NCBI GenBank assembly: GCA_044336985.1
Contig: JBIIOK010000004.1
Span: 1 to 57,447, forward strand
Length of the DNA stretch: 57,447 nt
DNA from: Pirellulales bacterium
GTDB taxonomy: Bacteria; Planctomycetota; Planctomycetia; Pirellulales; UBA1268
Direction: 5' to 3'
Positions 19,656 through 49,010 of the stretch are shown here, one piece after another. The notes below the pieces were generated by a model. That model was not told the origin of the DNA and searched no databases. It saw only the letters and a list, made by a program, of their open reading frames with translations. The stretch's first letter is position 1; every line of letters begins with the position of its first letter. Both the position numbers and the translations under genes were made by a program.

Positions 19656-19665
19656 TCGCGCTCTC

Positions 19666-31465: not shown

Positions 31466-32815
31466 TTACCAACGGGTCTCGACGCCGAGGCCGCCCAGGT
31501 CGGCCATCGGCAGCGGCACGACGCTCACCTCCATCCCGCCGAAATGGAGCTCCGTATTGCTGACTGCCCGCGAGCTGGCCCACGCGAGGTACCAGCCGAG
31601 GAAGACCTGCGACGGGAAGTGTGAATCGGTCGTCATGCGCGAGAATCCGACGAACGTCGAGCAGACGTAGAGCGCTCCCTTTGCCAGCGGGCTCTCCACC
31701 ATGTCGGCCGCCGCAAGGAATGGGATCGCTCCGACGAAGGCATGGCCGCTCACGCCGTTGTCATCCTGGAAGAACTTCCACTGGCTTCCGGCCGAGCTGT
31801 TTTCGAGGGGACGCGACGCACCGGTGGCCAGCTGCATGACATAGACCGGCGGCGCGCCGACGATGAACATGCGCAGTGAACGCGAGCCCCATTCGCCCAG
31901 CACGTCGCCGCCAGGCTGGCCCTCGAAGACGAGCCCGGTGAGGCCCGCCACGCCGAAGATGGCCAATGCATACCGCCCCTCGCCGATATCCTTGCAGCCC
32001 CGGAAGAACGTGCCGACATCGGTGGGTTCCACGCTTTGTTGCCAGGCATCCTGCATCGTCATGTCGAAGCCGGTGTTGGCCATCAAGGCGCCGGCGCCGA
32101 AGGCACCGGTGATGCAGACGAGGCTTTCGCAGGAATAGAAGTTGCGGTAATCCTCCAGCACCTTGTAGCCGAACCGCGCCGCCCGCGGATGCTTGCTATG
32201 GGCCCACGGGGGCTCGTTGCGAGCGGCGAGCATGCTCTCCCCGGTGAGCGGCGGCAGTGAGTAGACCGGCTCCGTCGTCGGGGCCATTCGCGCGGCGAAT
32301 TGGGTGGTGATGTTCCTCCTGTCGCCGTTCCATGAGGCGGCGGGCCAGCCGCCGGTGAGTTCCACTCGGCCGGGGACGTCGGCCTCTTGGGCCGCGGCGA
32401 TCGCCTGTGTCTCGACGATCACATCGATCCAGGCTCCGTGTGCGGTGGGGACGACACGCACGACCACCCGCTGCCGTCGCGGTGGCCAGGCCGCCGCGGC
32501 GATCGGCAGCGATCCCGGCGCAGGGGGTTCACCGGGTGGCTCGACCCAGGCCGATTCGATGACGCCCTCGCGGGGCGGCGTCGACGTGAAGTCGGGCTCG
32601 ACCGCCCGCACGATCGGCCAGTCGGTGGCAACCGTGGCCAAAGTCTGCCGCCAGAGGAGCCTGCCGTTCTCGCTCGGCAGGAACATGCCCCCGGCATCTT
32701 CCGCGGCGGGGGTCGCCGGCGGCTCGTCGGCCCAGGCGAGCGACGCGGAGATTGCGATCACGAGCGCCGATAGCGCCGCGCGCGCGAACGCCGATCGCTT
32801 CACCGCGTCGAACAT
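31466..32815 (-). CDS. PAP2-family phosphatase with long exported N-terminal region
   Basis: SRP, SGHAF, SRMTTDSHFPSQV; signal peptide ending AWA; ATG 32836 also possible. Confidence 0.82.
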   Translation of the reverse strand: MFDAVKRSAFARAALSALVIAISASLAWADEPPATPAAEDAGGMFLPSENGRLLWRQTLATVATDWPIVRAVEPDFTSTPPREGVIESAWVEPPGEPPAPGSLPIAAAAWPPRRQRVVVRVVPTAHGAWIDVIVETQAIAAAQEADVPGRVELTGGWPAASWNGDRRNITTQFAARMAPTTEPVYSLPPLTGESMLAARNEPPWAHSKHPRAARFGYKVLEDYRNFYSCESLVCITGAFGAGALMANTGFDMTMQDAWQQSVEPTDVGTFFRGCKDIGEGRYALAIFGVAGLTGLVFEGQPGGDVLGEWGSRSLRMFIVGAPPVYVMQLATGASRPLENSSAGSQWKFFQDDNGVSGHAFVGAIPFLAAADMVESPLAKGALYVCSTFVGFSRMTTDSHFPSQVFLGWYLAWASSRAVSNTELHFGGMEVSVVPLPMADLGGLGVETRW

Positions 32816-32901
32816 GTGGAACGGATTGGGGGGCATCGGTGGGGGGGGGAATGTCCCAGCCGACGCCCCGCGGGGCAAGGCGTTTTTGGGGCCTGAAAAC
32901 A

Positions 32902-33073
32902 CGCCCAATCCGGCCCGAGGCTGCCTGTACCCTCTCGGCGGACGTTCGCTGCGGACATCCTGTCCTCCGCCAGCATGCCCGCTCGCCAGCCAGAGCGCCT
33001 CCGCTTGGGCATCCTGCCTACGCTCGCGAGCAATAGCCCGCGAGAAGGTACAGGCAGCCCCGGGCCTACCCGC
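32902..33073 (+). repeat. Family C element, copy 3
   Basis: Stem ggcccgaggctgcctgtacc / ggtacaggcagccccgggcc with conserved core. Confidence 0.88.
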
Positions 33074-33080
33074 GTCTGAA

Positions 33081-33127
33081 GTAGGACAGGCTTCAGCCTG
33101 TCTCAGACAGGCTGAAGCCTGTCCTAC
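33081..33127. repeat. Family A REP inverted doublet
   Basis: 33081-33102 and 33106-33127. Confidence 0.92.
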
Positions 33128-33135
33128 ATCGGGGA

Positions 33136-33348
33136 GGCTTCGGGTGACCCGTGCCCCGGGAGCCGGCGGTGCTGACAAGCTACGGAAGCCCGCAGCGCAA
33201 GCAAGGTCCATCCGCTCTCCACTTCGACCAGTTACGCTCCCACCTGCCCCGCGAGAAACGCCCCCAACTCTCCTCGCTCGCGCGTCGGGCTTCCGTACCG
33301 TCCGTAGCGAGCGTCCGGCGACGGGTCACCCGAAGCCGGTTTTTGGCG
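33136..33348 (-). repeat. Family C element, copy 4, centre replaced by a family D element
   Basis: Arms 33136-33180 and 33298-33348 match the reverse complement of copy 2. Confidence 0.82.
33181..33297. mobile_element. Family D MITE-like element (117 bp)
   Basis: Terminal inverted repeats tacggaagcccg / cgggcttccgta extending imperfectly to 26 bp; interior similar to 49011-49126; mobility is inferred. Confidence 0.65.
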
Positions 33349-33359
33349 CGTGAGCGTGC

Positions 33360-33381
33360 GACAGGCTGAAGCCTGTCCTAC
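33360..33381 (-). repeat. Family A REP containing the TAG stop of the HlyD gene
   Basis: gacaggctgaagcctgtcctac; stop at 33378-80. Confidence 0.9.
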
Positions 33382-34508
33382 TGATTCGGCGGGGCTTCGA
33401 TGAAGACTTCCATCTGCTGGCCGACGAAGAGCGGCGGCCGGTCGGCGGGGTCGCACTCGTAGATGACCTGCAGCACCCGCGTGTCCACCCGCTCCGTGTT
33501 GTCGCCGGTGAGCGATTTCTTCGGCACGACGAACGGCTCGACCCGGACGAACTCGAGCGGATACCGCTCCTGGAGGCTGCCGCGCGGCACGGCGGAGGCC
33601 TTGGCGTTGCTTGCGAATCGGGAGATGTCAAACTCGTCGATGTCGACCCGCACGTGGAGCCGCTCGATGTTGCCGAGGATCACGAGCGGCTGGCCCGGCG
33701 GGGCGCCGACGAACTCTCCCGGATGCACGTTCACCTGAAGGACCCGCCCGGCCACGAGCGACCGAACGATCAGCCGATCGAGATCCGTCTCGATCTTGGC
33801 CACCTCCGCCTCCGACTTCGAGACACCAGCGCGGGTGACGTCGCGGTCGTATTCCCAGGAGCCGGCCTTGAGCAGCGCAAGATCGGCCTGCGACCGCTCG
33901 AGATTGGCCTGCGCAGCCGCGAGCGCCTCGCGCCGCGCGATCAGTTCCTGTTCGGTCGTGACCTTGCGGGCGAACGTGTCCTCGGTGCGACGCAAGGCGT
34001 CGGTCTCGCGGGCCACGTTTGCCTGCGCCTCGTTGACTTGAGCCACGAGCACCGGGATTTTTTCCTTGCGGGGCTCCGCCTCGAGCCGCACCAGTTCGCT
34101 CTTTGACTGCGCCACCGCGGCCCGCTTCACGGCGAGTTCCCCCTGCAGCTGCCGGTCGTCGAGGCGGAAGAGCGGCTTGCCCGGCTGCACTTCGTCTCCG
34201 ACCTTGACGAGCACCTCCGTCACGACGCCCGGCGTCGCCGACCCGACGGCGATGTTCTCCGTCTGGGCCTCCACCACGCCGGCTGCCGCGAGCGTCGCGG
34301 CGAACGGGCTGCGGGCCGGCTCGATCGGCGGTGGCGGCGTCTGCACGATCACGCGGTTTCGCCAGACATACCAGCCCGCAAAGCCCAAGAGCGAGAGGGC
34401 GACGAGCGGCAGGACGAACTGCGTCACGAAGTCTCCGTCGCTGCGGCGACGGTTCAGCCGCGGCTTTCCGCGGGCGGGCGGCGCAATGTCGTCGGGAGCG
34501 ACCGCCAT
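33378..34508 (-). CDS. HlyD/DevB-type membrane fusion protein
   Basis: TM anchor, lipoyl half-motifs (VKVGDEVQPGKPLF, GRVLQVNVHPGEFV), coiled coil, ERVDTRVLQV. Confidence 0.9.
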   Translation of the reverse strand: MAVAPDDIAPPARGKPRLNRRRSDGDFVTQFVLPLVALSLLGFAGWYVWRNRVIVQTPPPPIEPARSPFAATLAAAGVVEAQTENIAVGSATPGVVTEVLVKVGDEVQPGKPLFRLDDRQLQGELAVKRAAVAQSKSELVRLEAEPRKEKIPVLVAQVNEAQANVARETDALRRTEDTFARKVTTEQELIARREALAAAQANLERSQADLALLKAGSWEYDRDVTRAGVSKSEAEVAKIETDLDRLIVRSLVAGRVLQVNVHPGEFVGAPPGQPLVILGNIERLHVRVDIDEFDISRFASNAKASAVPRGSLQERYPLEFVRVEPFVVPKKSLTGDNTERVDTRVLQVIYECDPADRPPLFVGQQMEVFIEAPPNQ

Positions 34509-34512
34509 GCTG

Positions 34513-35772
34513 TCAGCCTCCGTGGGCCGGGGAAGCCGCCAACTCGGCGTGGGATCTCGCCCAAGCGTCGAGCATCGCCACCTGCTTCGAAAAATCCTGC
34601 TCGGCGACATTGAGCGGGCTCTTGAAGAAGCAGGCGAGCCACTCGATCGCACCGTATTCCCCCGCGCGGCTGGCCCGTTCGATCAGCCGCACGAGGTCGA
34701 GCACCAGCGGCGCCGCGAGGATCGAATCGCAGCCCTGCCAGGTGAATTGGAGCGTCATCGGCGTGCCGAGAAAACCGCGGAAATGGATGTGGTCCCAGGC
34801 CGTCTTCCAGTCGCCCAGGCTCTTGATGTATTCGATCGAGACGTGGGTCTGCGGCGGGTAGCCGAGGATGGCAGCGAGCAGGTGGTCCTTGCTCCGCACC
34901 TTCGCCGCCTTGTTGCGCGGATCGTCGAGCACCTTGCCATCCATGTTGCCGAAGATGTTGTGGCCCACCCAGCTCATCACTTCGAGGTTGCGGGCGGCGA
35001 ACATTGGCGCGAGCACGCTCTTGAGGAGCGTTTCCCCCGTCTTGCCATCGCAGCCCGCGTGGGCGATCCGTAGGTCGCGGGCCACCTGTTGCAGGCAGGC
35101 AGGCGTCGAGCCGGTGGATGGGGTGAAATTGACGTAGGAGGCCCCTGCTTCCGCGGCCGCGAGGAAGTAGAGACTGCTGGCCGGCAGCGGGCACTTCTCC
35201 GCGCTGCCGAGCAGCGGCTCCACGGCGGAGAAATCGTCCGGGATCGGCAGGGCCGGCGGCGGCTCCGTGGACGCGACGTTGACGACGACGACGTGGCCGA
35301 GCCCCTCGGCCTTCTGGAAGGCCTCGATGTCGCCGCGTACGCGGTCGATCGCCGCCCGCGGAGTCTCAACCACGGCCGCCGTGCGCGGGTCGGCGAGGCT
35401 GCGGATGCGGTCTCCAGAGGCGACGAGCGTGCCGGGACGCAGCCTCGACTCGACTTCAGCGAAGAACCCGGCGGCGTCGGCGAGCAATTGCGGGGTGATC
35501 GCCCGGCTCTCCGCCCACATTCGCTGGGCCTCGTCACCGAGCCGCCCGGCGCGGATGTCGTGGCCGCCGACGACGATGTCTTGGAAGTCGACGAGCGCGA
35601 GCCGCGTGAAGGGGTCGAGCGCGGTGACGACGCCCACGGGGTCGATCGCCCCGCGGCGAAGTGCCGCCAGCCCAGTCATCAGCGTCGTGGCGACGCCCCC
35701 CTTCGCCCCGATGAGCCAGAGACCTATTCGCGGGGGAGGGAGCGGGCGCGAGGGAAGGGGCGAAGGCTGCAT
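34513..35772 (-). CDS. ino1: Inositol-3-phosphate (myo-inositol-1-phosphate) synthase
   Basis: LIGAKGGVA, NVASTE, VNFTPS, GCDGKTGET, NIFGNMDG, GDWK, DSILAAPLVLDL. Confidence 0.93.
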   Translation of the reverse strand: MQPSPLPSRPLPPPRIGLWLIGAKGGVATTLMTGLAALRRGAIDPVGVVTALDPFTRLALVDFQDIVVGGHDIRAGRLGDEAQRMWAESRAITPQLLADAAGFFAEVESRLRPGTLVASGDRIRSLADPRTAAVVETPRAAIDRVRGDIEAFQKAEGLGHVVVVNVASTEPPPALPIPDDFSAVEPLLGSAEKCPLPASSLYFLAAAEAGASYVNFTPSTGSTPACLQQVARDLRIAHAGCDGKTGETLLKSVLAPMFAARNLEVMSWVGHNIFGNMDGKVLDDPRNKAAKVRSKDHLLAAILGYPPQTHVSIEYIKSLGDWKTAWDHIHFRGFLGTPMTLQFTWQGCDSILAAPLVLDLVRLIERASRAGEYGAIEWLACFFKSPLNVAEQDFSKQVAMLDAWARSHAELAASPAHGG

Positions 35773-35802
35773 GCAGTCATTCTTTGCCGGATGTGCCCGG
35801 CG

Positions 35803-36582
35803 TCAAGGACGCTCGGGCGAACGCGGGGCCGGCGCGGCGACGTGGTGAGGACCCGACGCCACCGACTCGATCCGACCGTCCTCCATCGATGCGATGCGGT
35901 CGGCGAATGAATAAGCCCGCGAGTCGTGCGTGACGACGATCACGGCCCGGTCAGGCTGGACGGCGATGTCTTGAATCAGTTCCATCGTGATCCGGCCATT
36001 CTCGGCGTCGAGCGCGCTTGTCGGCTCGTCGCAGACCAGAAGCCGCGGCTCGTGGACGAGCGCCCGCGCGATCGCCACCCGCTGCTGCTGCCCCCCCGAG
36101 AGCTCGCTCGGCAGATTCGTGAGCCGATCGCCGAGGCCGAGCCGGTCGAGCACGTCGGCGGCAGCGGCGACGGCGTCGGACCGCCGCCAGCCGGCGATGA
36201 GCAGCGGCACGGCGGCGTTCTCGACGGCCGTGAGCGAGGGCAGCAGGTTGTAGGACTGAAAGATGAAGCCGACGTTTTCGCGGCGGAATCGCACCTTACG
36301 GCCGTTCGTCATGGTGACCAGATTCCTGCCCAAGACCATACAAGCGCCGGCCGACGGCTCGAGCGTGCCGGCGATGATCGAGACGAGCGTCGTCTTGCCG
36401 CAGCCGCTCGGGCCCACGAGCATGAGCAGTTCGCCGTAGGGCACGTCGAGATCCACGCCGCGCAGCGCCCGCGTCATCGAGTCGCCGCTGCCGAATTCCT
36501 TCGTCACGCCCCTCACGCGGATGGCCATCTCCTCCGTGCCGATGTCGTCGAACGTGTGCGGGGTGGTCATGGCAGGCTTCAT
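35803..36582 (-). CDS. ABC transporter ATPase (DevA/LolD/MacB-like)
   Basis: GPSGCGKT, LSGGQQQRV, CDEPT, VTHD; ATGA overlap with permease stop. Confidence 0.95.
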   Translation of the reverse strand: MKPAMTTPHTFDDIGTEEMAIRVRGVTKEFGSGDSMTRALRGVDLDVPYGELLMLVGPSGCGKTTLVSIIAGTLEPSAGACMVLGRNLVTMTNGRKVRFRRENVGFIFQSYNLLPSLTAVENAAVPLLIAGWRRSDAVAAAADVLDRLGLGDRLTNLPSELSGGQQQRVAIARALVHEPRLLVCDEPTSALDAENGRITMELIQDIAVQPDRAVIVVTHDSRAYSFADRIASMEDGRIESVASGPHHVAAPAPRSPERP

Positions 36583-37715
36583 CCGCGAAAGACGACGGCC
36601 GGGTCGAGCACGAGCACCTTGCGGATCGAGAGCACGCTCGCCACGAGCACGATCACGAACACCGCCGCCGCCGTGATCGCCAGCACCTGCCAGGGCATGA
36701 AGAAGGAGAGCCGCGTCATGCTGCGTGACCACCAGCCGAAGAGGGCCGCCAGCCCCACGCCCACGCCATAGCCCACGAGCCCCACGTGGAGGGCCTGCGA
36801 GAGCACCATGAGCAGGATCATCCAGTTGCTCGTGCCCATCGCCTTGAGGGCGCCGAACTGGCGGATGTTTTCCACGGTGAAGAGATAGAAGGTCTGCCCC
36901 GCGATCGCCGTGCCGACGAAGAACCCAAGCAACACGGTGATGCCGAAGTTGATCGGGATGCCGGTCTTCCGCAGGTAGTAGACGATCGTCTTGCGGAGGA
37001 ACTGGTCGCGGGTGACCGCCTGCAGGCCCGTCTGTTCCTCGATCCGGCGGCAGACATCCTCCGCCGCGAGCCCCGGCTTGGGGCTGGCCAGAACGAACGA
37101 CAGCACCTTCCGCTCCGGCGGCGCGAACGTCACCGCCTGGCTGTACCGCGTGTAGAGAATGGGAAAACTCTGGAACGTGCGACTGGCCTTCGTGATCCCC
37201 ACAATCACGGCCCGGTGATCGTTCATCTCGAAAACGCGGCCCAACCGGAAGGGTTCGCCCGGCCAGATCCGCTTGTAGCCGGCGTCGTCGATGATCACCG
37301 CATCGGGCTTGCGCAGGTCGGCGATCGAGCCCATGAAGACCCCCCCCGGCGCGCCGACGAGCGTGGCATCGTCGAGGCCCAGCAGGATCACCTGCTCGTA
37401 GGAGCCCTCTTCGAGACGGGCCCGTGCGATCCCCTTGTAGAACCGCACCGCCCAGTCGACCCCTGGCACGCCCTTCACGCGAAAGAGCTCGGTGTCGGAG
37501 AGCGGCTTGATGTCGTCGACGAACTGGACGTTTTCGTCCATCACCCAGATGCTCGGCCCCTGCACGTCGCGAATCTGGCTGACGGTGAGCGACATGAGGC
37601 CGCAGAAGATCGAGGCCTGCTGCGCGATGAGGAGCGCAGCGAACACGACCCCGAAGACGATGCCGAGGTACTTCGCCCGGTTGCCGATCAGCATCTTCCA
37701 CGCGATCCAAAACAT
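36579..37715 (-). CDS. ABC transporter permease (DevC/FtsX-like)
   Basis: One N-terminal TM, large periplasmic domain, three C-terminal TMs; FGALKAMG; DPAVVF. Confidence 0.92.
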   Translation of the reverse strand: MFWIAWKMLIGNRAKYLGIVFGVVFAALLIAQQASIFCGLMSLTVSQIRDVQGPSIWVMDENVQFVDDIKPLSDTELFRVKGVPGVDWAVRFYKGIARARLEEGSYEQVILLGLDDATLVGAPGGVFMGSIADLRKPDAVIIDDAGYKRIWPGEPFRLGRVFEMNDHRAVIVGITKASRTFQSFPILYTRYSQAVTFAPPERKVLSFVLASPKPGLAAEDVCRRIEEQTGLQAVTRDQFLRKTIVYYLRKTGIPINFGITVLLGFFVGTAIAGQTFYLFTVENIRQFGALKAMGTSNWMILLMVLSQALHVGLVGYGVGVGLAALFGWWSRSMTRLSFFMPWQVLAITAAAVFVIVLVASVLSIRKVLVLDPAVVFRG

Positions 37716-37763
37716 GCCGCGAGTCTACCGCTCCGCGGAAACCCGCGTCGACCGCTTCGTAAA

Positions 37764-37790
37764 GTAGGCCGCTTCGTCCCGAAGCGGATC
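37764..37790 (+). repeat. Family B GTAG-REP
   Basis: gtaggccgcttcgtcccgaagcggatc; partial copy at 37747-37760. Confidence 0.8.
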
Positions 37791-37882
37791 TGTCTTCACG
37801 CAAAACATCGCCATCCGGGCGATTTTTTCTTGGCAACCTCCGGTTGCTGGTTCTCGCCCGGCCCTCCAGGCCTAGTGCTATG

Positions 37883-38051
37883 CGCCCAACCCGGCTTCGG
37901 GCGACCCGTACCCCGTCGCCGGACGCTCGCTGCGGACATCCTGTCCTTCGCTCGCTCGATGCTGACTGCGCCAGCCAGAGCGCCTCCGCTTGGGCATCCT
38001 GCCTGCGCTTGTCAGCAACGCCGGCGAGCGGGGTACGGGTCGCCCGAAGCC
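37883..38051 (+). repeat. Family C element, copy 5
   Basis: Stem ggcttcgggcgacccgtaccc / gggtacgggtcgcccgaagcc. Confidence 0.9.
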
Positions 38052-38059
38052 TCCGTCTC

Positions 38060-38112
38060 GTAGGACAGGCTTCAGCCTGTCATCAATCAAGACAGGCTGA
38101 AGCCTGTCCTAC
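38060..38112. repeat. Family A REP inverted doublet
   Basis: 38060-38081 and 38091-38112. Confidence 0.92.
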
Positions 38113-38123
38113 TAATCAATAAA

Positions 38124-38280
38124 GCGGGTAGGCACGGGGCTGCCTGTGCCCTCTCGCGGGCTATGGAAGCGAGCGCAGGCAGGATGCCGAAGCGAAGCGG
38201 ACATGCAGTGAGCGAAGGACAGGATGTCCGTAGCGAACGTCCGCCGAGAGGGTACAGGCAGCCTCGTGCCGGGTTAGGCG
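38124..38280 (-). repeat. Family C element, copy 6
   Basis: Reverse-orientation copy; stem ggcacggggctgcctgtgccctctcg / cgagagggtacaggcagcctcgtgcc; family B fragment follows at 38292-38306. Confidence 0.88.
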
Positions 38281-38313
38281 AGTTGAGGCATGACGAAGCG
38301 GTCTACCCGTCGG

Positions 38314-39468
38314 TTATTCGAGCAGGATGATGCGTGGGTCGATCCAGACCGTCGCGATGTTCGCCTCATCGCCGTCGGCCGGCTCGACCACGAGCTCGAT
38401 CTGCCGCGCGCCGTCGAGGTTTGCACGGATGAAGAGAGGCTCGTCACCCCGCTGCAGCACCGGAGAGGCGAACTTTTCCACTCGCGTGCCATCGGCAGGC
38501 ATCGCGAAGACCCGCACGATCGCTCGGCTCCCCTGCCCCGCCGTGTCGTCGATGGCGACGGTCGATTCCAGCCGCTGGGCGGGCCGGCTCAAGTCGTAGC
38601 GGATCCGTGCGGGGGATCCGACTGCTCCGATCGACATTCCCTGGAAGCCTGTGATGCCGCGGGCCGTCGGCCAATCGCCGGCGAGCGTGCGGCCACGCGC
38701 GAAGCGGTGGCCTGCGGTCGATTCCTCGGGAACGATGGCGCTCGGGATGGTGCGAGCGAGGCTCGTCGCGGCCTGCCCCTCCATCGCCACGACGAGGCTG
38801 GGATCGGCGGCGATCGCCGCCGCGGCTTTTTGGGCGATCGAAAGCGGAAAACGTGAGCCATCGTCGAGGGCCACGCGGAGTGCGGCCGCGGGCTGCGGGG
38901 CGTCAGACGCGCTCGTCGTGATGCTTTGCACGCGTTCGATCGGCACCGCCAAGGAGCGGCCCTGCCAATCGATCTCGAGGCGGCCGTCGTGGAGGCGAAG
39001 CGATCGGGCCGACAAGCGGTCGCCGTTGCGGAGTTCGATGAACCAGCGGGCTTGCGAATCGGCGCCGGCCGCCCTCCCCTCCTCGATCTCGGCGTCGGCC
39101 GGGCGGCTCGCGGCCGTTGCGCGAAAGCCTGCGAAGTCGGCAGCCGGCAGCGGGATGGTGCCAAGTGCCGCCGACTTCACCGTGGCCGTCGTGCCGTCGA
39201 AGGCTGCGAGCGTGCCGGCGATCATGCCGCCGTCAGCGAGCACGACGTGCGGCCCGAGCGGCAGAGGCGGGCAGCGACCCCAGGCTACAAGGCTTGCCGC
39301 CGGCATCTCGATCGCGGCGCCATCGCGGCCGCGAAAGACGGCGCTGTCGGCTGTAATGCTTTCGAGCGCGGCGTTCTCGTGCTGCGCGGGGGCGATCGCG
39401 TGCGCGACGGTCGTGACCAACGCGATGGCGGCGCAGAGCATGGCGCGGTGGCGACACGATCGTGTCAT
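38314..39468 (-). CDS. Exported protein with C-terminal NPCBM/NEW2-like domain
   Basis: Signal peptide; LRNGDRL; IRYDL...VAIDD...IELVVE...WIDPRI. Confidence 0.72.
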   Translation of the reverse strand: MTRSCRHRAMLCAAIALVTTVAHAIAPAQHENAALESITADSAVFRGRDGAAIEMPAASLVAWGRCPPLPLGPHVVLADGGMIAGTLAAFDGTTATVKSAALGTIPLPAADFAGFRATAASRPADAEIEEGRAAGADSQARWFIELRNGDRLSARSLRLHDGRLEIDWQGRSLAVPIERVQSITTSASDAPQPAAALRVALDDGSRFPLSIAQKAAAAIAADPSLVVAMEGQAATSLARTIPSAIVPEESTAGHRFARGRTLAGDWPTARGITGFQGMSIGAVGSPARIRYDLSRPAQRLESTVAIDDTAGQGSRAIVRVFAMPADGTRVEKFASPVLQRGDEPLFIRANLDGARQIELVVEPADGDEANIATVWIDPRIILLE

Positions 39469-40505
39469 GGGGATGGCCGATCCCGTTGGTAGAGGGGCGT
39501 GAGGTCGTTTGGCATCTGCAGGACGGTCAGCGCCGCGCTCGTGCCATATTCGGGGCAGGATGGATCCTGCCAGGAGCCGTCGTCGCGCTGGGCGGCGATG
39601 AGCGTCGCCGCCGTGGCGGGATACCAGGCCTCCCAGTCGGCATCTCCCCGCTGCCAGAGCGCGGCCGCCGTGGCAGCGAGACCGTAAAGCGCATATCCGT
39701 CGCCCGACTCGAGCTTGATCGTCGTGCCCAGCTTGACTGGATGGGCATTGAGCCAATCAAAGCCGCGCCGCACCGGCTCCTCCTTGCCGCCGCCGGCCGC
39801 CACGAGCGCGAAGAGCGCCGCGGCCGTCCGCGGGGCGGCGCTCGGCCCGGCCGACGACTGGTAGCGGAAGCCGCCGTCGGCATTTTGCAGCCGCCCGAGG
39901 TACGCGACGGCCCGATCGACCGCCTCCGCGGAGACGTCGAAGCCGGCGTTGCGGAGTGCCCGCAGGGCGTTGAGCATCGCGGCCGTCACGGAGATGTCGG
40001 CGTCGCGCGGGACGGGCTGGTATCGCCAGCCACCCTCTTTGTTCTGCGTGCGCTCGATGAGGCGCCGTGCGCCATCAAGCGCCTCGGCCACCGCCGCGTC
40101 GTCGTCCGTCTCGCCGTAGAGTTCCGCCAGCGCGATCGTCGCGAACGCATGGCCATACATGGGGCCGTGCGCCGCCTGCTCGCGGCCGGCGATGAGGCCG
40201 CTGCCCCCGGCCGAGGCCAGCAGGAAGGCGACGGCCCGCGCGACGGCTCGCGCCCGCGGCCCTTCCGTGGGCGTGCTGCCCGAGCCGACCATCGCCATCG
40301 TGCAGGTGGCCGTCACGGCGGCACTGCCACGAAACGCGGCCGAACCCCAGGAGCCGTCGGGCTGCTGCGCGGTCTCGAGCCAGTCGAGCCCGCGGGCGGT
40401 CGAGGCCTCGATCTCGGAGTCGTTCGCTGCGGCCACGCCGGCGAGCATGAGCCAGATGCTTGCGCAGGCAAGAGTCAGGTGGCATGGATGGAGGCGGTTG
40501 TTCAT
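39465..40505 (-). CDS. Prenyltransferase/squalene-oxidase repeat protein, exported
   Basis: QW-like repeats QQPDGSW, QNKEGGWRY, QNADGGF, QRDDGSW; MYGHAFAT. Confidence 0.88.
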   Translation of the reverse strand: MNNRLHPCHLTLACASIWLMLAGVAAANDSEIEASTARGLDWLETAQQPDGSWGSAAFRGSAAVTATCTMAMVGSGSTPTEGPRARAVARAVAFLLASAGGSGLIAGREQAAHGPMYGHAFATIALAELYGETDDDAAVAEALDGARRLIERTQNKEGGWRYQPVPRDADISVTAAMLNALRALRNAGFDVSAEAVDRAVAYLGRLQNADGGFRYQSSAGPSAAPRTAAALFALVAAGGGKEEPVRRGFDWLNAHPVKLGTTIKLESGDGYALYGLAATAAALWQRGDADWEAWYPATAATLIAAQRDDGSWQDPSCPEYGTSAALTVLQMPNDLTPLYQRDRPSP

Positions 40506-41923
40506 GGCTTCGATCGCTCCTGCTCGAGCAAGAGACGATAGTAGGCGTCGATGGCCCGCTGGTGCGAGGGAAATGTCGCGGCGTCTGAAGCCTGGGGCCG
40601 CAGTGTCTGCGACTGCTCGGGCACGAGCGACCAGACTCGCTCGATGCCGTCGCCGCCCGGCGCGAGGCCGGCAGATTGCGGCGTCTCGGCTGGGGCGCCG
40701 CCATCTCCGGAGCCTGTCGCCGTGCCGGCGGAGGCATTTGTTTCAGGTGGCATTCCCGGCACCGTCACGGCCAAGCCCTCGGCCACCGACGCCGACGCCA
40801 CGGCTCGGTCGAGCCGATCGAGCCTGTCGAGCAGCGCACGGGGATCGCGGTCGAGCGACAGTGGCTCGTTGCCACCCAGAGGCCGCTGCGCTTCGAGCGA
40901 TCCGTTGCCGGTGGCCGCCACGGGGATTCCAAGAAGCGCGGCCGCCTCCGTCAACCGATCCGCGAGATGGCCCGCGGCCTCAGCCGCCGCCGCGAGCCGA
41001 TGGTCGCGAATCGCGGCCGAAACGGCTGCCTTCGCGGAATCAACGTCCGCAGCCAGATCCGCCAGGGCGATGCTCAGCGCGGCTTCATCGGCCGCCTTGG
41101 CCGCGGCCGCGAGCATGTCGGCGTCCGCAGACACGCTCACCAGGCAGTCGTCGTGCAGCGCTGCCGCTTCAGCGATGAGCAGGCGACGGCGAGGTGGAAC
41201 ATCGACGGCGGCAAATCCGGGGGCCTCGGCAAACCAGCCGGCGAGGGAATGGGCGAGCCGGCGCTCGAATCCGGCCAGTGCGGCGATCCGCGCGGCTGCC
41301 TGCCCCGGTGCCGACTGCGGGTCGAATGTCGGCCGAACCGCGGCGCGCGACGAATCGTCTGCGGGAGCCGCCGTCGTGGTCGTCGCGTGCGTGGTGACCG
41401 TATCGCGGCGCGTGCCAGCGATCACGAGCAGTGAGAGCGCCACGGCGGCGACCGCCGCGAAGCCGACGTGCCGCGCGGTGTCCTCGATCGGCGCCGCGCC
41501 GATCCGGTCGGCGGCATCACCCGCCTGCTCGATCGCGAGTGCCTTGAGCGTCGGCGAGCCGTCGCCCGCGGCAGTGGTCTCCTCGAGGAAGTCGATCGCC
41601 CGCGAGATTCGCTCGCCGAGTTCCGGCTGCGTTCGCTCGGCTGCCAGCGCGATCGCCAGACGCGTGGGCCACGAGGCAATCGCGCGGCGGGCGAAAAACC
41701 AGGCGGCGATCGCGGTCGCCGTCAGCACGGTGGCCGCGACGAGACGTGCATCCACGCCGGCGCCGGTGACGCGGCCGGCGATGATCGCGATTGCCCAGAC
41801 GCATGCCGCCACGCAGCCGATCCGGCCGATGACGCCAAGCCCATGCACGACACGGGCCCTTGCGACCCGGCCGTCGATCGCCGTGCGCAGTCGTTCGGCA
41901 GAAGTGGGGGCGATGCTCCTCAT
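40502..41923 (-). CDS. Ala-rich membrane protein with helical C-terminal region
   Basis: About three TM segments; AERTQPELGERISRAIDF; terminal IDAYYRLL; ATGA overlaps at both ends. Confidence 0.7.
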   Translation of the reverse strand: MRSIAPTSAERLRTAIDGRVARARVVHGLGVIGRIGCVAACVWAIAIIAGRVTGAGVDARLVAATVLTATAIAAWFFARRAIASWPTRLAIALAAERTQPELGERISRAIDFLEETTAAGDGSPTLKALAIEQAGDAADRIGAAPIEDTARHVGFAAVAAVALSLLVIAGTRRDTVTTHATTTTAAPADDSSRAAVRPTFDPQSAPGQAAARIAALAGFERRLAHSLAGWFAEAPGFAAVDVPPRRRLLIAEAAALHDDCLVSVSADADMLAAAAKAADEAALSIALADLAADVDSAKAAVSAAIRDHRLAAAAEAAGHLADRLTEAAALLGIPVAATGNGSLEAQRPLGGNEPLSLDRDPRALLDRLDRLDRAVASASVAEGLAVTVPGMPPETNASAGTATGSGDGGAPAETPQSAGLAPGGDGIERVWSLVPEQSQTLRPQASDAATFPSHQRAIDAYYRLLLEQERSKP

Positions 41924-44900
41924 GGCAGCCCCCGCCGGGCACGGGCAGACCACTCGATGGCGCAGGCGGCCACGAACGCGAGCATGAGCAGGCTCGTCGC
42001 CGTCGGTCCGTGGAGCCACGCCCGGCTCGTCGCCCGTGCCGCCGCCACCCGGGGGATCCGCTCGGGCAGTGAGCCGATCGACTCGAGCGAGATACGATCG
42101 CCGCCGCTCGCGACCGCGGCCGCCTCGAAGGCCGCAGTCATGGCGGGCGGCCCCGGCTGCTCGGGCTTCGCCGGCAGCACGAGGAAATCCCGCGAGATGG
42201 TCGGCCGGGTGTGGATCGCGACGCTGTGCCAGCCCGCGTCGAGATGATCGAGCCAGACCGTTCCCGACGAGGCATCGGCAGGCTCCTGCCGACCGTCGGG
42301 CCCCGTGTGCTCGAGCTGCCAGCCGGCGAGATCGGTGGTCGGCCGCGTCGGCTCGATGTCGATCCGCATCGTATCGCCGGCGGCCGGCCGCGATGGCTCG
42401 AGGCTGAGCATGGCGGGGGTGTATCGCGCGAGGATGCGGCCTTCGGCGAGCCTCGATAGCGAGTGTCGCCAAAACGCGGCGTGGTCCATCGAGCCTGCTT
42501 TGGAGCCAGTCGGCCCGCGCAGCCGCCAGGTGGTGAACAGGCTGCCGAGGATGGTGCCCGCCCCGCGTTGATCGAGGATGACCGCGGCCGCCGGTGCGGC
42601 GTCTTCAAAGGTGGTGATCGCCAGAACACGGGCCGTCGGCTTGAGGCTGACGCCTTCGGCGATCGTCCACACATCGGCATGCTTCGCCCCCGCTGGTGTC
42701 GGCATCGCGCCAACCTTCCAGCCCGCCTGCAATGCGGCCGGCAGCCAATCGAGTCGGCCGCCATTGGAGGCCTGCGTCGCCACGCCGACGCGGCGAGACG
42801 CGGGCAGCAAGTCGTCAAGCGGTGAAGCCGCTGAAACGCCCTCGTGCCAGCGGCGGCCGGGACACCACGCCACGCCGACGCCGTCGTTCTGCACCGCGTC
42901 GAGCAGACCGGCCGCGGAGTCGCTCGGGATGTCGTCGCCGTGGATGTCGCCGAGCACGACCACGTCGAACCTGCTCCAGTCGGATGCAGTCTTCGGCAAC
43001 GGCGCCGCGAGCCGCGCCGGTCTCCCATCGCCCTCTGCTCGGCTGCGGCCGTCGAGCAGGCACGCCTCGACGCGAAACCGTCGGTCGGACGCGAGCAGGT
43101 GCTCGAGAAACCGAAACTCGAACCGTGGCACGGCATCGACGATGAGCACCGACACCGGTTCATCGACGACGAGCGTCGCACCCGCCATTCCTCCGGCGGC
43201 GTCATCCGCGGCCTGCTCGCCATCGGGCCGGACGACGAGTGTCTGCATGCCAGCCTCACCTGGCTTCCATCCCACGGTGCCCGAATATCTGTTGGGCAAG
43301 ATCCCGCCGCCAACGCGGTCCGCGCGATCCGGTTGGAGGCTTGCCCGCGCCAGTGGTTGGCCATCGCGAGCCGCGAAAATGATCGGCAGCTGCTTGGCCC
43401 CCGATCGCTCCTCCACCTCGACGGTCACTCGAACCTCTTCGTCGCGCCATGCCACCCGCGGCAGGTCGGCGGCGACGAGCGTGAACGGTGAATCCTTCGA
43501 CTCGGCAGCTGCGCCCGGTCCGCCCACCGGGATGGCAAACAGCGGGACGCCGCGGGCGGCGGCGATCCGGGCCGCATGCTCCCATGTGGCGCCCGATGTG
43601 ATCATCCCGTCGCTCGCGATCGCGATCGCGGAATACCGTGATGGAGCGCCGATCAGCAGTTCCTCGACCGCGTCGCCGATCCGACTGGCATCCGGACCGA
43701 CGGCAACGGACGCGATTGGCTCAGCCCCACGACCGTGCGGTTCGAGCGGTGCGAGGTCGCCTGCGGCCTTGAAGAGCGAGATCGGCGCCGTGGCAAAGCC
43801 CCGATTCGTTTTGCGGGCGCGATCGATTGCCGCGCTGATGGCCGCCAGCCGCGTCAGCCGTCCGCCCGGGACGGACGGTGCCTCCACGTCGGCTGTCGCC
43901 ATGCTCGGCGAGACATCGACCACCAGCGCGATCTCTTGGCGATCTCGATCGTCGTCGGCTCGCGGTGTCTCGCCCGCGCCCAAAAACATCGCGGCAAGCG
44001 CTGCCACGATTGTTGCGCGGGCCGGCCATCCGATCCAGGCAAACGACCGATCCGGCGCCGCGCGGAGCCGCCGGCGGAAGAGCAGCCATGAGAGCAGCGG
44101 ATCGAGGATGGCGAGCGCGATTGCGGCCCCGAGGAGCAGCCGCGTCGGCGGCAGCCGTCGTCGCAGGGCATCGACCGCGGCCACGCCGCGAACCGCACCA
44201 GGCGTGGGCCTCATGCCGGCTGAAGCCGTCGTGGCGCCCGGTTCGATGAGTCGCGAAACGAGCCGGTCCACCAGCGGCACGAACACCGGCCAGGCCGCGA
44301 GGTCGCTCCAGGCATTCGCCGCGCTGCCGGGCGAGCCGGCCCCAAGCGAAAGCGGCAGGCCCGACACGCAGAGGCGGCCCGCACCCACGCGGGCTTCGAC
44401 GATAAGCGGCCTCCCCTCCGGCACAGTCCGGGCGAGCACCGTCACCGGGGCGACGTCGCGCGGCTTGACCACGAGATCCGCGAACGACGAGACGCTCGGC
44501 CCGGGCAGCGTGACGAATGCGTCGCCAGTCGAGGCCGCGCCCGGGAAGTCGGCAAGCGACGGAGCGACGGCGATGCGTTGGCCGGCGCCGGCGACGCCGC
44601 CTGCGATCCTCGTGCCGGCGAGCCCTTCAAGCCAGTCCGAGAGCCACTTTCGCGCCGGCCCGCCGACGGTGTCGGGGCCCACGAGGAAGAGCACCGCCGC
44701 ACCGCGGTGCAGCGCCTGTGCAAGCCCCTCGGCCATAGCGCCCGTTGGCGGAATCCCATCGGCGAGGATCACGATCGCGCCGGCCGTGGCGGAAGAAGCG
44801 GCGGCGAGCTGCGACGCCGGGAGCACTTCGACCGTCGCTGTCGGCAAGCCGCCCGCGGTGCGGATGGCCTCGATCGCCAGCCGCATGGCCGCGACGCTCG

Positions 44901-45267
44901 ATTCCTTGGCCGCATCGCCTGGCTCGACGAAGACGATCCGCCGCGTGCCCGCGCTCAAGACGGCGTCATCGGCCGATGGTGGAACGGCTGCGGGGGCAGC
45001 CAGGAACGGCCGCGCCGCGGCGGCGACGGCGAACAGCAGCATCGTCGCCCGCAGCAGCAAGAGCGGCGTCGAAAAACCCTCCCGCGAAAGTCCGGCCCGC
45101 CTGGCCGCGCTCGCCACGATGTCGATCGGCGCCCAGCGCACCGGCCGCGCTCGGGCGACGGCGAGGTGGGCGATGATGAAGGGCAACGCGACCGCCGGCA
45201 GCCACCCGAGCATCCACGGCCAATCCAAGCCCAGGGCCAGCACGATGCCCGAGGTCGTCATGATCAT
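41920..45267 (-). CDS. BatA-like / vWA / GATase1-like multidomain membrane protein
   Basis: N-terminal LPFIIAHL...LLLLRA...ARP; MIDAS DVSPS and SDG; PRFEFRFL, FDVVVLGD; terminal EWSARARRGL. Confidence 0.78.
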   Translation of the reverse strand: MIMTTSGIVLALGLDWPWMLGWLPAVALPFIIAHLAVARARPVRWAPIDIVASAARRAGLSREGFSTPLLLLRATMLLFAVAAAARPFLAAPAAVPPSADDAVLSAGTRRIVFVEPGDAAKESSVAAMRLAIEAIRTAGGLPTATVEVLPASQLAAASSATAGAIVILADGIPPTGAMAEGLAQALHRGAAVLFLVGPDTVGGPARKWLSDWLEGLAGTRIAGGVAGAGQRIAVAPSLADFPGAASTGDAFVTLPGPSVSSFADLVVKPRDVAPVTVLARTVPEGRPLIVEARVGAGRLCVSGLPLSLGAGSPGSAANAWSDLAAWPVFVPLVDRLVSRLIEPGATTASAGMRPTPGAVRGVAAVDALRRRLPPTRLLLGAAIALAILDPLLSWLLFRRRLRAAPDRSFAWIGWPARATIVAALAAMFLGAGETPRADDDRDRQEIALVVDVSPSMATADVEAPSVPGGRLTRLAAISAAIDRARKTNRGFATAPISLFKAAGDLAPLEPHGRGAEPIASVAVGPDASRIGDAVEELLIGAPSRYSAIAIASDGMITSGATWEHAARIAAARGVPLFAIPVGGPGAAAESKDSPFTLVAADLPRVAWRDEEVRVTVEVEERSGAKQLPIIFAARDGQPLARASLQPDRADRVGGGILPNRYSGTVGWKPGEAGMQTLVVRPDGEQAADDAAGGMAGATLVVDEPVSVLIVDAVPRFEFRFLEHLLASDRRFRVEACLLDGRSRAEGDGRPARLAAPLPKTASDWSRFDVVVLGDIHGDDIPSDSAAGLLDAVQNDGVGVAWCPGRRWHEGVSAASPLDDLLPASRRVGVATQASNGGRLDWLPAALQAGWKVGAMPTPAGAKHADVWTIAEGVSLKPTARVLAITTFEDAAPAAAVILDQRGAGTILGSLFTTWRLRGPTGSKAGSMDHAAFWRHSLSRLAEGRILARYTPAMLSLEPSRPAAGDTMRIDIEPTRPTTDLAGWQLEHTGPDGRQEPADASSGTVWLDHLDAGWHSVAIHTRPTISRDFLVLPAKPEQPGPPAMTAAFEAAAVASGGDRISLESIGSLPERIPRVAAARATSRAWLHGPTATSLLMLAFVAACAIEWSARARRGLP

Positions 45268-46289
45268 CCGCTCCGCGGCGTTGCTTGGAGCAGCCGCGCG
45301 ATGATCGCATCGGGCGTGATCCCGTCACTGTCGGCCTCGAACGTCGTCACCAGCCGGTGCCGCAGCACGGCGGGGGCCGCGCGTTCGACGTCGCGCATCT
45401 CGGCGCAGGGGCGGCCGTCGAGCGCGGCATGCGCCTTTGCCGCCAGCACGAGAAACTGGCTGGCCCGCGGGCCAGCGCCATAGCGCACGAGCGAAGAAAG
45501 CCAGTCGGGCGCCTCCGGCGCGCGAGGCCGCGTGGACCGCGCGAGGCCCACGGCCCGCCGCATCACGTGCTCGGCGACGGGCATGCTCCGCACGAGCCGC
45601 GAGGCATCGGCGAGCGCTGCGCGGTCGATCACCGGCGCGACCGGCGCGGCCGCGGGGCCGGTCGTGCGGCGGACGATCTCGAGCTCGTCCTCACCGTCGG
45701 GGTAGTCGACTTGGATCAGGAACATGAACCGGTCGAGCTGCCCCTCCGGCAACGGATAGGTGCCTTCCTGCTCGATCGGGTTGCGTGTGGCGAGCACGAA
45801 AAAGGGGTCAGGCAGCGGATGGCCGACGCCGCCGACCGTCACCTGCCCCTCCTGCATCGCCTCGAGCACCGCCGACTGCGTCTTCGGCGGCGCCCGGTTG
45901 ATCTCGTCGGCCAAGAGCACGTTCCTGAAGATCGGTCCGGGAAGAAACCGCGGCCGCCGGCCGCCGGCCCGGTCTTCTTCGAGCACGTCCGTGCCGATGA
46001 TGTCGGCCGGCATGAGGTCGGGCGTGAACTGGATCCGGCCGAAGTCGAGCGCGAGCGACTGCGCGAGCGACTTCACGATCAGCGTCTTGGCGAGGCCCGG
46101 CACGCCCTCGAGGAGGCAGTGCCCGCCGCAGAGGATCGCGGCGAGCAGGTCGCCGAGCACGTCGCGCTGGCCCACGATCACCGGCTCGAGCGCCGCCAAG
46201 AATCGTTCCTTGAGCCTTCCGGTGGCCGCGAGGGCCGCGGCGTCGTCGGTCCGTCCCGGCGGTGCGGAGCGATGGATCGAGGTGCTCAC
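45264..46289 (-). CDS. moxR: MoxR family AAA+ ATPase
   Basis: LEGVPGLAKT, RIQFTPDLMPAD, DEINRAPPKTQSA, NPIEQEGTYPLPEGQLDRF; GTG start after GGAG. Confidence 0.95.
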   Translation of the reverse strand: MSTSIHRSAPPGRTDDAAALAATGRLKERFLAALEPVIVGQRDVLGDLLAAILCGGHCLLEGVPGLAKTLIVKSLAQSLALDFGRIQFTPDLMPADIIGTDVLEEDRAGGRRPRFLPGPIFRNVLLADEINRAPPKTQSAVLEAMQEGQVTVGGVGHPLPDPFFVLATRNPIEQEGTYPLPEGQLDRFMFLIQVDYPDGEDELEIVRRTTGPAAAPVAPVIDRAALADASRLVRSMPVAEHVMRRAVGLARSTRPRAPEAPDWLSSLVRYGAGPRASQFLVLAAKAHAALDGRPCAEMRDVERAAPAVLRHRLVTTFEADSDGITPDAIIARLLQATPRSG

Positions 46290-47113
46290 GGTCGTGCTCC
46301 CGTTGGCGTGGCATTGATCTGGCTTGGCATGGCATTGAGCTGGCGACCATCGCGGCTGAAGACCGCCACGTTGCCGGCGCGGGTGTCGATGGTGACGAGC
46401 CCGTCGTCGAGCCGTGCGCTGCGTTTGCGCGGTGCATGGTCGATGCCGTCGGCCGCGATGGCCGATCCCAGCGGCCTGGTCCAGATCACATGCCCGTCGC
46501 GCAGGTCGTAGGCCGCGAGGTGGAGCCAGTCGGCCGGCTCGCGGCTGCGCACGACGCAATAGACCCGCGCGGCATCGGCCGCGGGCGCTCCGTCGAACAC
46601 GGTCGGCCGGGGCGGGCCGCCGTCGTGGGTGACGGCCGGAGGCGGGGCGATCCATGCGAGCCGCCCCTCGGCGGCGGCCGAGAGATCGAGGCAGACAAGC
46701 GCCGCCGCATCGTCGTCATCGTCGGTGGCGGAGATTCCGTCGAGGATGGCGATCGCGCGGGCGGCACTCGAGCAGGCTGTCAGGGGCGGCAGATTTTTTG
46801 TCGCCCCGGTGCGGAGGCGGGCCGCGGCCACGCCCCTTGGAAAAAGCAGGCTGTCGGTCACAGGCGACGGGTCTTTCCCGTCTCTCGAGTCTTTCCACGG
46901 CTGGCTGCCATCGGCGAAGCGCACCGCATGGACGTCGCGGCCCGTATTCCACACGATGAGATCACCGCAGCGAATCGGCTCGAAGTTGTTGTCCACGGCT
47001 GGGCCCGCGCCCAGCGAGGCTGCCAAGGTCACGCATGCCGCCACGATGGCTCCCCGGGGCCGGCATGGTCCGATTGGAGGATTTGTGCGGGAGCGGTGGG
47101 CCGATCGCGGCAT
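46286..47113 (-). CDS. PQQ-type beta-propeller repeat protein (short)
   Basis: LVCLDL...EGRLAW, YDLRDGHVIW, AGNVAVFSRDG; start uncertain. Confidence 0.6.
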   Translation of the reverse strand: MPRSAHRSRTNPPIGPCRPRGAIVAACVTLAASLGAGPAVDNNFEPIRCGDLIVWNTGRDVHAVRFADGSQPWKDSRDGKDPSPVTDSLLFPRGVAAARLRTGATKNLPPLTACSSAARAIAILDGISATDDDDDAAALVCLDLSAAAEGRLAWIAPPPAVTHDGGPPRPTVFDGAPAADAARVYCVVRSREPADWLHLAAYDLRDGHVIWTRPLGSAIAADGIDHAPRKRSARLDDGLVTIDTRAGNVAVFSRDGRQLNAMPSQINATPTGARP

Positions 47114-47209
47114 GAATGAACCCGCCAAGGAGAACGGATTTCCGGCAGGAAGAACACTTTTGAAGTATAAGTCGGGGAGGAATTTCGCGGAAACCGCCCG
47201 AGCATTTCC

Positions 47210-48274: not shown

Positions 48275-48754
48275 CCCGGTGATCGCGGTGAGCACGAGGT
48301 CGATGCCGGCGAGCCGCGCCATCGTCATGTGACGCCGGCTGTGGGCGGAGGGCTCTGGTGGCGAGGGGAAACGCACCGCGGCCTCCCAGAGCACCCAGAT
48401 CAGGAGCACGAGCGACGACACGGCGAAGATGAGATGAATGCCGAGCGCCGTGAGCACGCCGGCCGGCCACCACGGGCTCGCCGCCGCCCGAAGCTTCCAG
48501 TCGCTCACGAGCCGCACGTCGATCTCGAAGATGACGATCGCCGTCAGGAGCGCCGCGGCGATGATCCACTGCAGCCGCTTGTGGGCCGCGAAGTTCCGCC
48601 GGTTGCGGACGAGGTGCACGCTCCAGGCGAGGAGCGGCAGCACTGCGAACAGGCCGACGAGGACCACGTCCATGCCGAGCGACGCGCGGGTGCCAAGAAA
48701 CCCGTCGATGCCGCCCGGTGCCGGGGCGGCCGTGGAAGCGGCTTCAGAATTCAA
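48239..48754 (-). CDS. DUF420-like four-TM membrane protein
   Basis: GFLGTRAS..MD, AHKRLQ, FEIDVR, GIHLIFA; TTG start; convergent overlap with tatC. Confidence 0.75.
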   Translation of the reverse strand: MNSEAASTAAPAPGGIDGFLGTRASLGMDVVLVGLFAVLPLLAWSVHLVRNRRNFAAHKRLQWIIAAALLTAIVIFEIDVRLVSDWKLRAAASPWWPAGVLTALGIHLIFAVSSLVLLIWVLWEAAVRFPSPPEPSAHSRRHMTMARLAGIDLVLTAITGSVFYWLAFVAR

Positions 48755-48880: not shown

Positions 48881-48966
48881 GGCCGAGTGGCGAAACTGGC
48901 AGACGCACGGGACTTAAAATCCCGGGGAGAGAAATCTCCGTGCGGGTTCAAGTCCCGCCTCGGCCA
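48881..48966 (+). tRNA. tRNA-Leu, anticodon UAA (CCA not encoded)
   Basis: Acceptor GGCCGAG/CTCGGCC plus A; anticodon arm cggga-ctTAAaa-tcccg; long variable arm; GTTCAAG T-loop. Confidence 0.96.
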
Positions 48967-49010
48967 CTGCCTCGAGGTTGCCGCCGGCTCGCCCTTTTGG
49001 GGTTCCCCCG

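Follow-up and report, generated by a model that had tools for sequence, protein, structure and literature searches.

In composite transposons such as Tn5 or Tn10 a block of genes is flanked by two related inverted repeats, and among the miniature inverted-repeat transposable elements (MITEs) the Correia/NEMIS elements are an example with long terminal inverted repeats (TIRs). This report concerns two long palindromic repeats, here called the left (L) and right (R) composites, that bracket an operon encoding an ABC exporter and myo-inositol-1-phosphate synthase (ino1) in a member of the Pirellulales, the order to which Rhodopirellula baltica also belongs. The window analysed is the whole of contig C239 (JBIIOK010000004.1, 57,447 nt), part of a 2.84-Mb, 243-contig metagenome-assembled genome (MAG; GCA_044336985.1) that is 85% complete, has a G+C content of 67.8%, and is placed among uncultured freshwater Pirellulales by its related genomes and by the sequencing runs that hold the sequence.

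Described systems of comparable repeats are built on the repetitive extragenic palindrome (REP). REP doublet hairpins (REPINs) and the REP-associated tyrosine transposases (RAYTs) are the subject of Bertels & Rainey 2011 (PMC3116915), and bacterial interspersed mosaic elements (BIMEs) are defined in the accessible text of PMC2817692 and PMC3333891. GTAG-REPs are short stem-loops with a GTAG tag at one end (Di Nocera et al. 2013, PMC3733652). The accessible text of that paper also describes longer palindromes with REP dimers in them and, for R. baltica, a 'plethora' of tyrosine transposases flanked by repeats; it gives MITEs as elements of 70-300 bp with TIRs of 15-30 bp.

The composite examined here is a real, recurring, family-wide nested palindrome of the REP/BIME/MITE kind. 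The bracketing of the operon is very probably best explained by two independent copies of this common repeat lying beside a fixed, non-mobile operon.

Architecture and abundance of the composites

Each composite is built from two C arms, C1 and C2, which are non-coding hairpin elements of 143-210 nt with inverted ends of 23 nt (C1) or 26 nt (C2), and which together form a palindrome of 330-480 nt. The 2.84 Mb of assembled sequence hold 239 non-overlapping C-like loci, 490 REP units and 31 C1+C2 composites. The C-like loci were collected with nhmmer, using home-made profiles from 5, 9 and 13 near-full copies, and the REPs by a 22-mer search allowing up to 3 mismatches; as the MAG is incomplete and broken at repeats, all genome-wide counts are lower bounds. 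In every one of the 31 composites, C1-type and C2-type arms have the same relative order and orientation. The association is strongest for C2, with 28 of 33 C2 loci of at least 100 nt lying beside a C1, and 26 of the 50 full-length C1 loci have a C2. Three length classes of C1 could be distinguished by the start-to-start distance of the TIRs (117-122, 136-147 and 165-203 nt).

The REP unit reads GTAGGACAGGC-TTCA-GCCTGTC(CTAC). It begins with GTAG and has an 11-bp stem and a 4-nt loop, and was therefore placed in the GTAG-REP class. The repeats form 452 clusters; 69 isolated '> <' REP doublets were counted, with further doublets inside larger clusters. Of the 31 composites, 14 have a REP doublet at the centre and 17 do not. 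REPs found just outside composites are, in 16 of 16 cases, oriented as if the composite sat within a '> <' doublet, and the outer and central REPs are all symmetric about the composite centre. At C216:42425-42921 a composite lies between two REPs, and two relatives (G012 and G010) hold an intact doublet at the orthologous site.

The repeat family was found in 15 of 15 genomes of the same genus. Within the same taxonomic family it also occurs in 5 of 9 other genera, and it was found in none of 16 other families of the order; full-length composites are present in other species and genera. An Rfam scan of the whole window at gathering thresholds gave no match on the repeats, the sole match being a tRNA (48881-48966), and no Pfam match was obtained on open reading frames (ORFs) crossing the composite arms. 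Many contigs of these MAGs end in the repeats, which explains why the assemblies fragment. When Logan contigs from four lake or freshwater runs were compared with positions 32400-38800, they ended about 50 nt or less from the repeat borders and none spanned a composite; the 'joints' listed had sides of 21-27 nt, all within repeats.

In the R composite, a C1 arm with 23-nt TIRs (37893-37915 and 38029-38051) is followed by an 8-nt spacer (tccgtctc, 38052-38059), a central REP doublet and a C2 arm with 26-nt inverted repeats (38131-38156 and 38245-38270). The L composite, read on the minus strand from 33348 to 32898, has a C1-type arm, an 8-nt spacer (tccccgat), a REP doublet and a C2 arm with self-complementary ends (32912-32937 and 33041-33066). 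The sequence agrees with the first-pass annotation of this DNA in the order of the arms and in the 8-nt spacer starting with tcc. That annotation also gave both composites the same subtypes, which holds for the C2 arms and for the C1 ends but not for the interior of the L C1-type arm; this is a different, nested hairpin repeat ('D'), and only ~50 nt at each end are common to the two C1 arms. The L C1-type arm itself has nine near-full copies at >=85%, which served as profile seeds, and its interior hairpin also occurs alone at ~90 or more other loci.

The predicted single-stranded DNA folds differ between the two. The R composite forms one long hairpin (-157.5 kcal/mol, z -17.3) in which C1 is paired with C2 and the REP doublet lies at the tip. 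The L composite gives a branched fold (z -11.4) that the outer ends close and that contains three hairpins: one is formed by the C1-type arm, which includes the nested hairpin, one by the C2 arm and one by the REP doublet. An inverted alignment of L and R (32898-33180 against 38284-38007) shows 80.3% identity over 294 nt, with a longest exact run of 35 nt. The direct alignment is nearly as good (79.0% over 238 nt) because each composite is itself palindromic, and the inverted orientation reported earlier is therefore a matter of arm subtype alone. The L and R C2 arms are 80.8% alike; each is closer to a copy on another contig (for L, C148 at 93.7%; for R, see Table 1).

Neighbouring composites within 10 kb of each other on one contig make up seven pairs, five of them direct (C128, C216 twice, C41 and C87) and two inverted (C122, at 6.9 kb, and the L/R pair, at 4.5 kb). 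With 31 composites placed uniformly at random and gene structure ignored, at least one inverted pair within 5 kb arose in 48% of runs, so that composites are common enough to flank an operon by chance. The pairs show no preference for inversion, and a single inverted pair in a genome calls for no special explanation. The repeats themselves are far beyond chance, as their fold z scores and the 31 composites show; the bracketing is not.

The operon and the two spacers in related genomes

Between the composites lies a single four-gene operon (permease, ATPase, ino1 and HlyD) on the minus strand, as first annotated, and the minus strand is that of all genes across the region. No transposase or recombinase domain was found in the segment or in the neighbouring genes. 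Thirty relatives, which are not phylogenetically independent, were searched, and metagenome loci were added for synteny only. In 14 of the 30 relatives the PAP2, HlyD, ATPase and permease genes share a contig and a strand and keep their collinear order, and in none are they inverted; in the remainder, the operon genes are on separate contigs or unmatched. On six further contigs with an ino1-containing operon, all six were without inversion. Both composites are missing from one relative (G002, 81% identical), in which the NPCBM stop codon is ~12 nt from the permease ATG and the gap between HlyD and PAP2 holds just a small hairpin.

The two spacers differ in their occupancy. The R composite was seen in the present genome alone, and the R site lacks it in all seven related genomes or contigs examined. 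The R-site spacer is 70 nt long in G012 (93% identical); in G009 and G010 it measures 97 and 115 nt and contains an unrelated hairpin repeat of 80 nt. In metagenome contigs its length is 129 nt (L194 and L203) or 52 nt (L132), in each case with no C match. L194 and L203 (93-96% protein identity) possibly represent one organism sampled twice, and a search of the metagenome collection for conspecific contigs gave none closer than 93% protein identity. The L site carries C-type repeats in G012 (one C and one REP), G009, G010, L194/L203 and L132. In G010, the assembled part of this repeat, at a contig end, is oriented like the R composite and opposite to the L composite of the present genome. The L spacer is a long-used landing or turnover site.

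A third REP lies just outside the L composite, at the end of the HlyD gene. In G012 as well, the HlyD stop codon comes from the GTAG tag of the orthologous REP (L004, ~5859-5885), as TAA there and TAG here. Between the two genomes the 4-nt loop of this REP is flipped (TGAA against TTCA) and the stem is kept. Comparable differences were seen at other loci: C216:59178-59510 is missing from G012 and G002, C87:15641-16026 is mostly deleted in G012, and C87:10899-11269 is present in G012 and absent from G002. Gain and loss of the family between species is fast at ~90% identity.

It is ino1, not the operon, that has moved in this sub-clade. In G004, ino1 (L100, G004:C1, 5394-6543) lies between two genes whose orthologs adjoin in the present genome on C191 (~14313-14582) without it, and the operon runs PAP2-HlyD-ATPase-permease with an HlyD-ATPase spacer of 159 nt. 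The gene is inside the operon in the present genome and in G012, G009, G010, G002 and G008. No ino1 lies between HlyD and ATPase in G004, G007, G011, G013, G014, G015, G006, G003, G005, G018 and G016, its absence being read from match coordinates and checked by alignment in G004, G015, G007, G006 and G018. Within the operon it is tightly packed, with a gap of 30 nt to the ABC ATPase and 3 nt to HlyD, and no repeat scar was seen at either ino1 junction. The alternative ino1 context is conserved in G004 and about ten other relatives, and is empty in the present genome.

A further difference from G004 was noted to the right of the operon. There (L101, G004:C94, 1954-2059) the permease lies ~100 nt from the ortholog of 47208-48715 (TatC, DUF420), in the same relative orientation. 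The intervening ~9.5 kb of the window (37710-47207), with genes for NPCBM, a prenyltransferase-like protein, a 1133-aa ORF and a MoxR-type ATPase, are either an insertion in the sub-clade or a deletion in G004, and the breakpoint coincides with the R spacer.

The features of the region are listed in Table 1. Half a copy of the 'H' hairpin listed there is found at 38291-38306, and elsewhere in the genome this hairpin often lies 25-60 nt from composites (C216:50651-50681, C170:5078-5109, C62:14969-14999). Hairpin repeat 'D' occurs in the window at 33181-33297, 49010-49128 and 839-891, the 26-nt stems being kept and the ~55-65-nt interior varying by copy; contigs from the four metagenomes carry many different 'D' interiors between the same stems (joints 33206 to 33262-33272). 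Two solo arms, a C2 with one REP (19502-19658) and a C1 (22352-22520), are found 13-16 kb to the left of the composites, bringing the contig total to six full C arms when both composites are counted.

Table 1. Repeats and genes in and around the bracketed segment, in window coordinates (a dot marks features given no strand).
Feature	Position	Strand	Details
PAP2-domain gene	31466 to ~32813	-	L-side neighbour
L composite, C2 arm	32898-33073	-	nhmmer, C2 model positions 4-163, E 6.5e-36
L composite, central REP doublet	33078-33103 / 33105-33130	.	GTAG-type hairpins, 1-nt gap, 96% complementary; own hairpin in fold
L composite, C1-type arm	33132-33348	-	Ends match C1; interior is nested hairpin repeat 'D', 33181-33297, 26-nt stems
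Third REP, outside L composite	33356-33382	.	CTA at 33378-33380 is the complement of the HlyD TAG stop
HlyD-family membrane-fusion (adaptor) gene	33378-34508	-	HlyD_3 8.4e-12, Biotin_lipoyl_2, HlyD_D23; ATG 3 nt after ino1 stop
ino1, myo-inositol-1-phosphate synthase	34513-35772	-	PF07994 5e-42, PF01658 2e-34
ABC ATPase	35803-36582	-	ABC_tran 2.3e-34; candidate start ATG at 36582 or 36528
FtsX/MacB-type permease	36579-37715	-	FtsX 8.6e-15, MacB_PCD 2.4e-05
Second GTAG-tagged REP family ('H' hairpin)	37761-37792	.	~90 genome copies
Low-copy 80-nt repeat	37795-37875	.	6-7 copies; two-way terminator-like hairpin 37807-37823 inside
R composite, C1 arm	37883-38055	+	C1 model positions 2-170, E 1.2e-53; nearest other copy C75, 94%
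R composite, central REP doublet	38060-38081 / 38091-38112 (entry 38060..38112)	.	9-nt gap; 100% complementary; apex of predicted long hairpin
R composite, C2 arm	38120-38284	+	E 6.9e-51; nearest other copy C56, 96.9%
NPCBM-domain gene	38314-39756	-	R-side neighbour

Mobilisation and alternative readings

A candidate source of mobility was found in a relative. G010 carries a gene for a 175-aa Y1 transposase with an HVH motif and arrays of this REP on both flanks, and such arrays on both sides are a RAYT hallmark in the accessible text of PMC3116915. That the REP doublets are mobilised by a RAYT is a reasonable inference. The two Y1_Tnp genes of the present genome have no such REP within 1.5 kb, and other repeats lie at their flanks. 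Perfect inverted repeats of 22 nt (L001, 1439-1460 and 2125-2146) enclose the gene on C37, and these ends are the stem sequence of the hairpin that fills the R site, the NPCBM-permease spacer, in G009 and G010 (L005, L006). This hairpin is a gene-less miniature of ~80 nt with the same ends, and the gene and the miniature look like a 'TIRtron' with its derivative. Around the other gene, on C171 (L002), several copies of a third, ~30-nt palindromic family with the stem core GGTGCCAGCCACC were seen at 1125-1170, 1978-2059 and 2534-2605.

The two-copy explanation can be set out as follows. Both flanks are non-coding, non-autonomous nested palindromic mosaics of the form (REP>) C1 arm (REP> REP<) C2 arm (REP<), with a REP module that is a GTAG-tagged REP, probably of the RAYT/REPIN kind. 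Copies would lodge in spacers downstream of genes, and would turn over quickly between species by insertion, by nesting at hairpin tips and by deletion. L and R would then be separate insertions of different ages in two adjacent intergenic spacers, and the operon, ancestral and fixed in place and direction, would be neither mobilised nor inverted by the pair. Movement may proceed through single-stranded hairpin intermediates handled by a Y1 (RAYT-type) transposase, and the composites might also have some effect on transcript ends.

Several observations count against parts of this scheme. Among 16 composites, the distances between C1 arms and those between C2 arms are uncorrelated (Mantel r -0.02, p 0.54; gap-free p-distances, a crude measure) and therefore do not support simple spread by copying as a whole; either there is recombination of arms between copies, or arms are brought together repeatedly. 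The earlier suggestion that the composite is itself a unit of spread consequently holds as far as a recurring unit is concerned (31 clusters of one order, C2 arms mostly beside a C1, occurrence in other genera), and simple whole-unit copying agrees poorly with the arm distances. No gene bounded by C-type ends was found in the assembly, nor any pair of C ends more than 260 nt apart, and no clean target-site duplication was readable in comparisons of empty and filled sites, where spacers have diverged and other repeats and partial deletions intervene. A REP-flanked RAYT ortholog was likewise not found in this 85% complete assembly, whose contigs break at repeats (tblastn gave 30-33% to two other Y1 genes). 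The R spacer of G012 (L004, ~1431-1501) holds a 26-nt hairpin that resembles joined C-type outer ends sharing TCGCCC, and the R site may have been occupied and then lost in that genome instead of being newly filled in the present one; no other joined-ends hairpin was found in the window (up to 3 mismatches) or in this genome. Finally, composites are clustered, with 7 pairs within 10 kb where 2.0 were expected (P 0.002). Their placement is uneven, with some local process or a preference for certain regions at work.

It is conceivable, though rather doubtful, that C1-(REP doublet)-C2 constitutes an undescribed, family-wide mobile long palindrome, the layers of which nest reciprocally at hairpin tips. 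This would imply a loop-targeting, single-strand mechanism of the Y1/RAYT type that builds palindromes of at least 400 nt layer by layer, and if true, the excess of neighbour pairs 4-8 kb apart would reflect short-range hopping.

The first-pass annotation likened the bracketed operon to a transposase-less composite transposon or an invertible segment, and neither proposal survives comparison with the relatives, in which the operon is syntenic and in the same orientation where one or both repeats are lacking. Had the composites been the ends of a 5.4-kb, operon-carrying element moved by a transposase supplied in trans from elsewhere, the inversion of the arms by subtype, a 13-nt inverted motif shared by the outer ends (CGCCCAAyCCGGC / GCCGGGTTAGGCG) and the presence of Y1 transposases in the genome would all find a place. 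This reading nevertheless deserves next to no credence: the operon keeps its place and direction in the 14 collinear relatives, including G002 with no composite on either side, L and R are just 80% alike and each is closer to copies elsewhere, the arms are non-coding, and the two sites differ in occupancy history. The own-genome matches listed gave no second copy of the operon, those outside the window itself falling on repeats, and no flanking duplication was visible. Occasional flipping of the operon by homologous recombination between the inverted composites is very unlikely too, if a little less so. The minimal length for RecA-type exchange is ~25-30 nt, and the 294-nt inverted match with its 35-nt exact run may suffice for rare events of this kind. 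Against this, none of the linked relatives or of the further ino1-containing contigs is inverted, a flipped operon would be head-on to its now co-directional neighbours, each composite forms a better pairing within itself than with the other, and there is no site-specific recombinase nearby. Together, synteny without the repeats and the abundance of composites contradict the idea that the pair forms one mobile or invertible unit, and the operon should not be annotated as such.

A different possibility, compatible with two independent insertions and best regarded as a minority view, is that the composites are selected boundary elements, hairpins at the operon borders that end or stabilise transcripts or insulate units. 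Genes were called on both sides of 20 of the 31 composites, of which 8 lie between convergent and 12 between tandem genes and none between divergent ones, and many composites abut stop codons. These orientations are indicative only, as they come from a crude GC3-based ORF caller that missed the PAP2 and NPCBM genes of this very window. The R insertion parts NPCBM from the permease, which almost adjoin in G002, and brings in the terminator-like hairpin at 37807-37823; REPs are described as lying mainly downstream of genes, many of them plausibly transcribed, in the accessible text of PMC3733652. A boundary role is harder to reconcile with the highly variable presence of composites between close species at orthologous sites, and with the unrelated hairpin repeats that fill the same spacer in G009 and G010.

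Two independent insertions beside a stationary operon thus remain the preferred explanation. The results extend REP/REPIN/BIME-type biology to uncultured freshwater Pirellulales and show unusually large, layered palindromes. The family could serve as a strain marker, or as a natural system for the nesting and decay of hairpin repeats.

Comparison with described repeat systems

The resemblance to transposons of the Tn5/Tn10 type lies in the two related inverted repeats around a gene block. The repeats here differ in being without a transposase, 80% rather than near 100% alike, and separate in their histories, and the genes that they enclose are ancestral. MITEs offer a closer match to the individual C arms, which are non-coding, 143-210 nt long and present in dozens of copies, with TIRs of 23-26 nt. 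They depart from MITEs in that the search gave no parent element in which such ends enclose a transposase, target duplication was not readable and the arms occur mostly as fixed pairs. In the openly accessible literature, with subscription journals outside the search, nothing was found on Pirellulales miniature inverted-repeat elements, and the titles and opening abstract lines listed for work on Planctomycetes REPINs make no mention of such composites.

As in REPINs, two inverted REPs separated by a short spacer form a hairpin, and both doublets at this locus are hairpins in the predicted folds. The hundreds of extragenic copies, comprising doublets and many singlets, and the Y1/HUH transposase with REP arrays in a relative (G010) are also REPIN-like. 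The doublet here is, however, the innermost or outermost layer of a 330-480-nt palindrome with two 143-210-nt hairpin arms, and the cognate RAYT was not found in this assembly. The GTAG-REP dimers of PMC3733652 share the GTAG start, the position of the dimer at the centre of a palindrome, and the coexistence, described there for R. baltica, of several REP families and several Y1 transposases. In the accessible text of that paper the host palindromes are ~40-55 nt, compared with ~330 nt and two distinguishable arms in the present genome, where the reverse nesting, of a palindrome within a REP doublet, also occurs.

The overall likeness is to a BIME-like mosaic, and membership of the E. coli BIME families is not claimed. 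Alternately oriented REPs and other conserved, non-REP motifs are combined in intergenic spacers in both, but the motifs of the present family are long and self-folding, with terminal inverted repeats of their own rather than the character of short linkers, and their host belongs to the Planctomycetota and not to the enterobacteria.

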